NCBI RefSeq assembly: GCF_045037415.1 | Contig: NZ_CP173438.1 | DNA length: 64,000 bases | DNA from: Escherichia coli | GTDB lineage: Bacteria > Pseudomonadota > Gammaproteobacteria > Enterobacterales > Enterobacteriaceae | Direction: 5' to 3' (one strand) | Shown: positions 61,929-62,178 of the stretch, piece by piece | Position numbering within the stretch: position 1 is the stretch's first letter | How the letters are laid out: each line of letters starts with the position of its first letter | Program-made: the position numbers and the translations under genes | The notes under the pieces: generated by a model | What the model was told of the DNA's origin: nothing | Database searches by the model: none | What the model saw: only the letters and a program-made list of their open reading frames with translations

Positions 61929-62178
61929 TTTTTTAACCTCAAGGTGAGACGTTTGCCGACTATAGTACGTCACAGAGCGGTACGGTGAAATTAGCAAAAT
62001 GTGCAAAGTCTTTTGCGAATTTAGCAAAAGTCTGATCTTTCTCTGATTCACCGATGCGGGATAAATATTTTCTGAAAATGACAATACTTAAATCAACTTC
62101 CCATAAGCTCCCACAGGAGAGATGTATTATGCAAATGATACAGGAGTTTTTCGGAAAAAATGATTATGGAGAATATAT

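Follow-up and report, generated by a model that had tools for sequence, protein, structure and literature searches.

The subject of this analysis is the 250-bp spacer between mdaB and hcp in Escherichia coli (RefSeq assembly GCF_045037415.1, contig NZ_CP173438.1), together with the short repeats that it carries just upstream of mdaB. The window – the whole stretch of DNA that was analysed, 64,000 nucleotides – holds this spacer at 61929–62178, exactly between the ATG of mdaB (61928–61926, minus strand) and that of hcp (62179, plus strand). Over 2.5 kb, from mdaB to qseC (query 61300–63800), the locus is 99.6–100% identical to E. coli Nissle 1917, M1/5 and the like. Its genes, and the insertion that lies among them, are as follows.

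61002–61316, minus strand: ygiN
61347–61928, minus strand: mdaB, NADPH:quinone oxidoreductase, 193 aa (open reading frame list; Pfam Flavodoxin_2, E = 2.5e-37; RefSeq annotation of the identical locus)
61937–61940, minus strand: Shine-Dalgarno sequence of mdaB, GAGG (from sequence)
62034–63755, plus strand: AT-rich hcp–X–ygiZ insertion, 1,722 bp (alignment with the empty-site alleles of O157, E. albertii and two other Escherichia lineages)
62179–62658, plus strand: hcp, 159 aa (Pfam T6SS_HCP, E = 3.5e-20)
62661–63371, plus strand: X, 236 aa, lytic-transglycosylase/lysozyme-like fold, putative cargo toxin of a type VI secretion system (T6SS)
63378–63710, plus strand: ygiZ, 110 aa, DUF2645, putative immunity gene (Pfam DUF2645; constant position right after X)

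To the right follows the 3′ end of qseC, a minus-strand gene whose stop codon is at 63756–63758. The original prediction had remarked on an abrupt shift of composition into an AT-rich Hcp cassette, and the shift is plain: G+C content is 0.497 across ygiN–mdaB, 0.40 in 61929–62033, 0.339 in 62034–63755, and 0.527 in qseC.

The direct repeats and the near-palindrome that had been pointed out in the spacer are likewise there. The 64-kb window holds exactly two copies of the 9-mer TTAGCAAAA, at 61991–61999 and at 62021–62029; both copies grow to a 13-nt repeat, GAA(A/T)TTAGCAAAA, 30 bp apart, and the near-palindrome GCAAAGTCTTTTGC occupies 62003–62016. Neither feature exceeds chance when taken alone. 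Of 100 shuffles, 19 gave at least two copies of the 9-mer in 64 kb, and 1.4% of the window's 14-mers are palindromic to the same degree as GCAAAGTCTTTTGC. The signal of the repeats is their clustering and their invariance across species, not their copy counts.

Cassette boundary and the alleles of E. coli

The spacer is in all probability made of two unrelated pieces: 105 bp of core DNA (61929–62033) and 145 bp (62034–62178) that form the left end of the cassette, which brings its own upstream region for hcp. The junctions fall at 62033/62034 on the left and, on the right, at 63755/63756, at the qseC stop codon. The left junction is 2 bp beyond a conserved module upstream of mdaB, described below, and the insertion occupies the gap of about 5 bp that in E. 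coli lies between the qseC stop and this module.

Three alleles of the locus were counted among 5,426 complete E. coli genomes. The full cassette is present in 1,261; an arrangement of the K-12 type, in which mdaB is followed by a 318-bp spacer, ygiZ and qseC, with neither hcp nor X, in 3,326; and an empty type, found in O157:H7 and others with the qseC stop 109 bp from the mdaB ATG, in 825. From mdaB through TTAGCAAAAGTCT at 62033 the three are identical, one base of a T-run near the ATG excepted, and the length of this run is the sole difference among the alleles within the 105-bp core spacer. The run itself (61929–61935, between the mdaB ATG and its Shine-Dalgarno sequence) has seven T in the window versus six in K-12 and O157.

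Past 62033 the alleles part company. The empty allele reads TACCC and then enters the qseC stop codon; the K-12 allele matches the window for a further short distance, continues with about 160 bp of its own, and rejoins at the start of ygiZ. The shared segment is as follows.

62034–62089, plus strand: left end of the insertion, shared with the K-12 type apart from 3 substitutions (alignment)

The comparison with K-12, which had been proposed as the means of finding the insertion junction, places divergence from the empty site at 62034 and from K-12 at 62090. K-12 is thus not identical to the window up to the start of hcp: the match ends at 62089, and K-12 has no hcp. Every breakpoint leaves the repeats on the core side. 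The original prediction had the spacer double as the boundary of an island, and of this the adjacency stands (the break is at 62033/62034), but the boundary falls inside the spacer and the repeats belong to the core.

The segment of about 160 bp specific to K-12 (2288–2447 of the K-12 locus sequence) replaces hcp and X. It was considered as a decayed remnant of either gene and rejected as such: BLAST and shuffled local alignments gave nothing significant (p = 0.26).

Beyond E. coli, mdaB loci were drawn from 80 species-level genomes of Enterobacteriaceae and their neighbours identified by tblastn. The site is empty in 77 of the 80, where about 109 bp separate mdaB from the qseC stop that lies upstream of it; among them are E. 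albertii, two other Escherichia lineages, Salmonella, Citrobacter, Klebsiella, Enterobacter, Kluyvera and Leclercia. In E. whittamii the arrangement is that of the K-12 type. Citrobacter werkmanii and a metagenome-assembled genome of Pseudocitrobacter carry diverged versions of hcp–X–ygiZ at exactly the same place, with protein identities for the three genes of 76, 73 and 64% in the former and 69, 67 and 44% in the latter, and in all three genera the cassette occupies the 3–10 bp between the qseC stop and the mdaB module. The predominance of the empty arrangement in 77 of 80 species indicates that the empty site is ancestral and that the cassette was inserted. The insertion spares both qseC and the control module of mdaB, and it separates mdaB from the upstream, co-directional qseBC operon. 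A boundary map precise to the base, and with it the order of events, is what our analysis adds at this point.

A cassette that begins just 2 bp past the repeat block invites the view that the repeats are a scar of insertion – a target-site duplication, an att core or the terminal repeat of a mobile element. Two further matches could be cited for it: a 7-nt inverted match near the ends of the cassette (TTCTCTG at 62039–62045, CAGAGAA at 63748–63754), and the 9-mer TACTCTGAC, which the K-12 left flank has in common with the empty-site spacer of one Escherichia lineage. The 9-mer, however, was matched in only one of 12 comparisons (p ~0.006, uncorrected), and the window itself shows no such match. 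The repeats, moreover, are identical in the empty site of O157 and in K-12, they occur at the empty sites of further Escherichia species, and the block is kept in about 80 species, nearly all of them lacking the cassette. No direct or inverted repeats of at least 12 nt flank 62034–63755; the cassette has three open reading frames only (hcp, X and ygiZ), with no integrase or transposase among them, and its ends differ in the Citrobacter and Pseudocitrobacter versions. The suggestion that the repeats are a remnant of the insertion junction, one of two origins put forward in the original prediction, is refuted by their presence base for base in empty sites and by the lack of flanking repeats, and we regard the chance that they are a scar as close to nil.

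The 7-nt inverted match is a post-hoc observation, and it is not conserved in the K-12, Citrobacter or Pseudocitrobacter versions. A relic of the 3′ end of qseC at the left end of the cassette (62039–62058) was also entertained and rejected: 12 comparisons yielded one 9-mer match, and none was significant for the window.

Conserved module upstream of mdaB

For each of the 80 species the 130 bp preceding mdaB were aligned, and conservation was scored column by column. What emerges on the mdaB strand is a sharp footprint – ATTaTTGC-N7-GCAAAAGACTTTGCACATTTTGCt.ATTT, followed by a weak −35 and then by GTAnAAT – whose elements in the window are these.

61988–62031, minus strand: conserved cis-regulatory module of mdaB, 44 bp, ATTaTTGC-N7-GCAAAAGACTTTGCACATTTTGCt.ATTT (per-column conservation, 80 species)
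61984–61989, minus strand: predicted mdaB −35, TTCACC, a weak match to consensus, 16 bp upstream of the −10 (sequence)
61962–61967, minus strand: predicted mdaB −10, TACTAT (position of the GTAnAAT conserved at a fixed distance in 80 species)

The block ATTaTTGC-N7-GCAAAAGACTTTGCACATTTTGC is almost invariant, with adjacent bases free to vary. Its 23-nt core, GCAAAAGACTTTGCACATTTTGC (62016→61994), is the same in nearly all of the species, while the 7-nt spacer of TTGC-N7-GCAAAAG is constant in length and variable in sequence. Within E. coli a 50-bp version of the module is present as a single copy in 5,425 of the 5,426 complete genomes, whichever allele they carry.

The repeats and the near-palindrome are parts of this module. 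At its promoter-proximal end the module contains TTTTGCTAA, of which the first copy of TTAGCAAAA is the reverse complement; the second copy overlaps the distal arm. That the 9-mer direct repeat is seen in E. coli and is missing in other genera follows from drift of this arm, which in Escherichia has gone from ATTATTGC to CTTTTGCTAA. The near-palindrome GCAAAGTCTTTTGC lies inside the invariant GCAAAAGACTTTGCACATTTTGC.

The promoter elements call for some caution. A sigma-70 consensus scan of the spacer on both strands gave no promoter above threshold, and the hexamers listed here are weak matches put forward as predictions for the conservation of their positions. A weak −35 would be typical of promoters that depend on an activator. 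A scan of 61850–62250 against Rfam gave no match at E ≤ 1.

The two arms of the module suggest a different reading, in which CTTTTGC-N7-GCAAAAG (62010–62030) is the ancestral intrinsic terminator of qseBC. The geometry is suitable: in genomes with an empty site the inverted repeat stands 10–15 nt after the qseC stop and on the same strand, and folding predicts a 7-bp hairpin for Escherichia and Salmonella (z −1.9 and −2.8). A simple scan did flag a terminator-like site at 62010–62030, yet on the opposite strand. On the qseC strand the stem is A/U-rich and no U-tract follows it, while for Citrobacter and Enterobacter no stable hairpin is predicted (z +0.3 to +0.4). By eye a few species seemed to show compensatory changes in the 7-nt spacer, and counting disposed of them. 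Beside the TTGC/GCAA arms the bases can pair in 41 of 81 sequences, where chance would give about 36, so that there is no covariation, and the arms are conserved as sequence rather than as pairing. A terminator is accordingly an improbable account of the block.

Probable marbox-type sites in the mdaB promoter

The other origin proposed for the repeats in the original prediction was an activator site for mdaB, together with a motif scan for MarA, SoxS and Rob. For such a scan a weight matrix was derived from the 19 MarA sites mapped by chromatin immunoprecipitation sequencing (ChIP-seq) in PMC5684230 (Table 1) and applied to both strands of the window, about 128,000 positions; it was used in place of the classical degenerate consensus, whose 20-nt form is AYnGCACnnWnnRYYAAAYn. 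The top-scoring site of the whole window falls in the module, and a second site lies beside it.

61990–62004, minus strand: proximal marbox (predicted), GCACATTTTGCTAAT, 15.2 bits, rank 1 of ~128,000; contains the first TTAGCAAAA copy on the plus strand
62011–62025, minus strand: distal marbox-like site, GCTAAATTCGCAAAA, 10.4 bits, rank 25 of ~128,000; overlaps the second TTAGCAAAA copy

The score of GCACATTTTGCTAAT is close to the median of the real sites under the same matrix, 15.4 bits. Set against the 15-mer definition gcannwwntgnnaaa, the proximal site has a mismatch at one of the ten defined positions and the distal site has two mismatches. Both are oriented as mdaB is, their starts are 21 bp apart, and the proximal site adjoins the −35-like TTCACC; the near-palindrome bridges the 3′ half of the distal site and the 5′ half of the proximal one. 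Additional matrix matches fall within the same 45 bp on the plus strand, at 61994–62008 (rank 17) and 62015–62029 (rank 43). Across the 80 species the medians are 10.3 bits for the proximal and 10.2 bits for the distal site, the former reaching at least 10 bits in 63 and the latter at least 8 bits in 59. The proximal site is in forward orientation, and its centre would lie at about −42 from a start predicted 7 nt past the conserved −10; class II sites are centred between −36 and −55.

The literature agrees on the regulon. PMC2989944, citing Martin and Rosner 2002, lists mdaB as a member of the mar regulon; PMC6561319 reports MdaB up 8.4-fold with vanillin and attributes the effect to MarR/MarA; and in Salmonella, inactivation of ramA lowers mdaB 3.2-fold (PMC3139621), the largest fold change besides that of ramA itself, tied with nfsA and acrA. 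A 2025 screen (PMC12052159, Table S2) predicts for K-12 mdaB these exact two 15-mers, GCACATTTTGCTAAT and GCTAAATTCGCAAAA, 21 bp apart. The activator site is thus known biology, and both sites had been predicted computationally before.

Several observations weigh against assigning the repeats to marboxes. Under the classical consensus with at most two mismatches the window holds 17 matches against 17.6 expected, which makes that consensus uninformative by itself; its one match in the spacer (61989–62007, minus strand) has two mismatches in the 19-nt core. The same Table S2 of PMC12052159 pairs both sites with start sites other than the one predicted from the conserved −10. The available portions of a MarA ChIP-seq study of enterotoxigenic E. 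coli (ETEC), text and supplement, make no mention of mdaB, nor do those of a Salmonella ChIP-seq paper on MarA, SoxS, Rob and RamA; the ETEC authors state that most known marboxes favour SoxS or Rob and hence were not expected in their data. The MarA-family literature searched, in the parts accessible, yielded no electrophoretic mobility shift assay, footprint or ChIP peak for mdaB. Finally, a run of 23 consecutive invariant bases exceeds the usual conservation of marboxes and could point to an extra factor.

This last point leads to a further possibility, namely that the invariant block serves, in addition or instead, as the operator of some other regulator, for instance a dimeric quinone-responsive factor of the LysR, MarR or TetR type; TGC-N7-GCA (a T-N11-A pattern) or GCAAA-N4-TTTGC would be candidate patterns. 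Conservation of 23 bases plus an arm at fixed spacing in 80 species, tighter than that of degenerate marboxes, is what such an operator might produce, as is a spacer constant in length and free in sequence, and the silence of the available parts of the ETEC and Salmonella ChIP-seq papers on mdaB would fit. Yet the literature searched gave no other regulator for mdaB, the module has no second copy elsewhere in E. coli genomes, and in most species each half has a good score as a marbox, which already explains the bipartite GC-N7-GC architecture. We consider another regulator unlikely, if less so than a terminator.

Our data point instead to the repeats as recognition elements of two adjacent marbox-type sites in the ancestral mdaB promoter, beside an unrelated cassette, and we place the probability of this at roughly 0.8. 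The activator-site option is supported to this extent: the repeats are parts of a conserved module of marbox type directly upstream of the mdaB −35.

Given two marbox-type sites, a mechanism can be sketched. MarA, SoxS and Rob – with RamA in other genera – are monomeric activators of the AraC/XylS family that would bind the module and recruit RNA polymerase. The proximal site (62004→61990), abutting the −35, would act in a class II arrangement with its centre about 42 bp upstream of the predicted start, while the distal site (62025→62011), two helical turns or 21 bp further up, would offer a second, in-phase place of binding. The expected outcome is induction of mdaB by quinones, redox-cycling drugs and antibiotics, and ygiN would probably be induced along with it. 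The pairing of activators with sites, the start of mdaB transcription and the use of the distal site are inferred.

There are parallels among the class II promoters of MarA, SoxS and Rob (fumC, micF, inaA, sodA, lpxL P1 and rfaY P1 are examples), which likewise have an asymmetric forward marbox that abuts or overlaps a weak −35; like their genes, mdaB is induced through MarA and RamA. The proximal site GCACATTTTGCTAAT is similar to such sites as those of yeeF (gcactatttgctaaa) and ypeC (gcattttttgctaaa), to which MarA binds strongly in vitro, and it is closely resembled by the marbox of the mar operon itself, ccacgttttgctaaa, whose TTTTGCTAA element is the reverse complement of TTAGCAAAA. Differences are equally evident. 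Unlike the class II examples, mdaB has a second marbox-like site exactly 21 bp upstream in the same orientation; unlike typical marboxes, its whole 44 bp are far more conserved; and the mdaB sites are predicted from sequence. With mdaB already established as a gene of the mar/sox/rob (and RamA) regulon, the finding as such matters little. Mildly novel are only the unusually strict conservation of the tandem marbox module and the hcp–X–ygiZ unit that has come to lie beside it.

The hcp–X–ygiZ unit

X is the least familiar member of the cassette. It has no match in Pfam and no sequence match in PDB; its homologues occur in Enterobacterales and are annotated only as "hypothetical", and W80-I81-E82 are invariant in the family. 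Wherever X was found in Pectobacterium, Serratia, Citrobacter and Pseudocitrobacter, ygiZ lies directly downstream. The trio of hcp, X and a DUF2645 gene stands between pagP and an EamA gene in Pectobacterium and, in Serratia, on a 75.6-kb record beside a RepB-type gene. Its recurrence in different genomic contexts argues that it moves as a unit, and from this it would follow that ygiZ is a candidate immunity gene, with the K-12 allele as its orphan.

Orphan T6SS cassettes for an Hcp, an effector and its immunity protein (glycoside hydrolases of the Tse3/Tge type) offer the nearest likeness. There too an hcp is followed by a protein of lysozyme/lytic-transglycosylase fold and then by a small gene, the three travel together across contexts, and they are AT-rich against their flanks; X, though, has no sequence similarity to the Tge or Tse3 families. 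For the present cassette, secretion and the roles of toxin and immunity are putative. Known immunity proteins for the Tse3/Tge-type class of effectors are periplasmic. The putative one considered here, DUF2645/YgiZ, differs in that K-12 YgiZ is annotated as an inner-membrane protein (PMC3950696, Table 1).

The manner of insertion has a parallel in integrase-mediated islands at the 3′ ends of tRNAs and genes, the cassette lying right after the qseC stop and at the same site in three genera. Unlike such islands it is only 1.7 kb long and has neither an integrase nor direct repeats of the att type. Homologous recombination in the conserved flanks, qseC and mdaB, would explain its spread more simply than insertion of the integrase type.

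Taken together, and at somewhat less than even odds, the gap between the qseC stop and the mdaB module may be a recurrent landing site for a mobile T6SS cargo unit (an Hcp, an unclassified putative toxin and a DUF2645 protein), of which the ygiZ of K-12, carried by 61% of E. coli without its partners, would be an orphan immunity gene; separately, and as tentatively, the distal half of the module could be the operator of a second regulator. If true, a K-12 y-gene would gain a function open to test, as the immunity gene of an Hcp-linked lysozyme-like toxin, an orphan copy of which is kept in most E. coli.

The cassette-side DNA has features of its own.

62062–62075, plus strand: TAAATATTTTCTGA (TAAA-N4-TTCTGA), RcsB-box-like (alignment of five versions)
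62078–62083 and 62102–62107, plus strand: candidate hcp promoter, −35-like ATGACA and −10-like CATAAG (weak; below the threshold of the consensus scan)
63715–63748: inverted repeat with 16-nt arms, 94% complementary, and a 2-nt loop, between the convergent ygiZ and qseC

TAAA-N4-TTCTGA is the only cassette-side non-coding motif common to the window, K-12, E. whittamii, C. werkmanii and Pseudocitrobacter, and it is absent upstream of hcp in the Pectobacterium and Serratia copies. According to PMC3950696, BglJ-RcsB activates K-12 ygiZ through a mapped site, which may be this box. A CATAA(T) element of the candidate promoter is kept at the corresponding position in K-12, and hcp has a Shine-Dalgarno sequence, GGAG, 7 nt before its ATG. 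The hcp upstream box also carries, at 62069–62081, one copy of an exact 13-nt repeat, TTTCTGAAAATGA, the other lying inside hcp at 62405–62417; in such AT-rich DNA this is about the level of chance.

At its other end the cassette includes the inverted repeat at 63715–63748, which is present in K-12 too and was not scored as a canonical terminator by a simple scan. It is plausibly a bidirectional stop, replacing whatever ended the qseBC transcripts in the empty site.

Two observations concern the neighbourhood on the far side of mdaB. The DNA on the other side of ygiN (57086–60957) is strain-variable too: it encodes two FecCD-type permeases, a substrate-binding protein and a MurR/RpiR regulator, O157 has the same genes, and in K-12 parE directly adjoins ygiN. 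Further out, 56000–56300 is very AT-rich, with a G+C content of 0.24–0.30.
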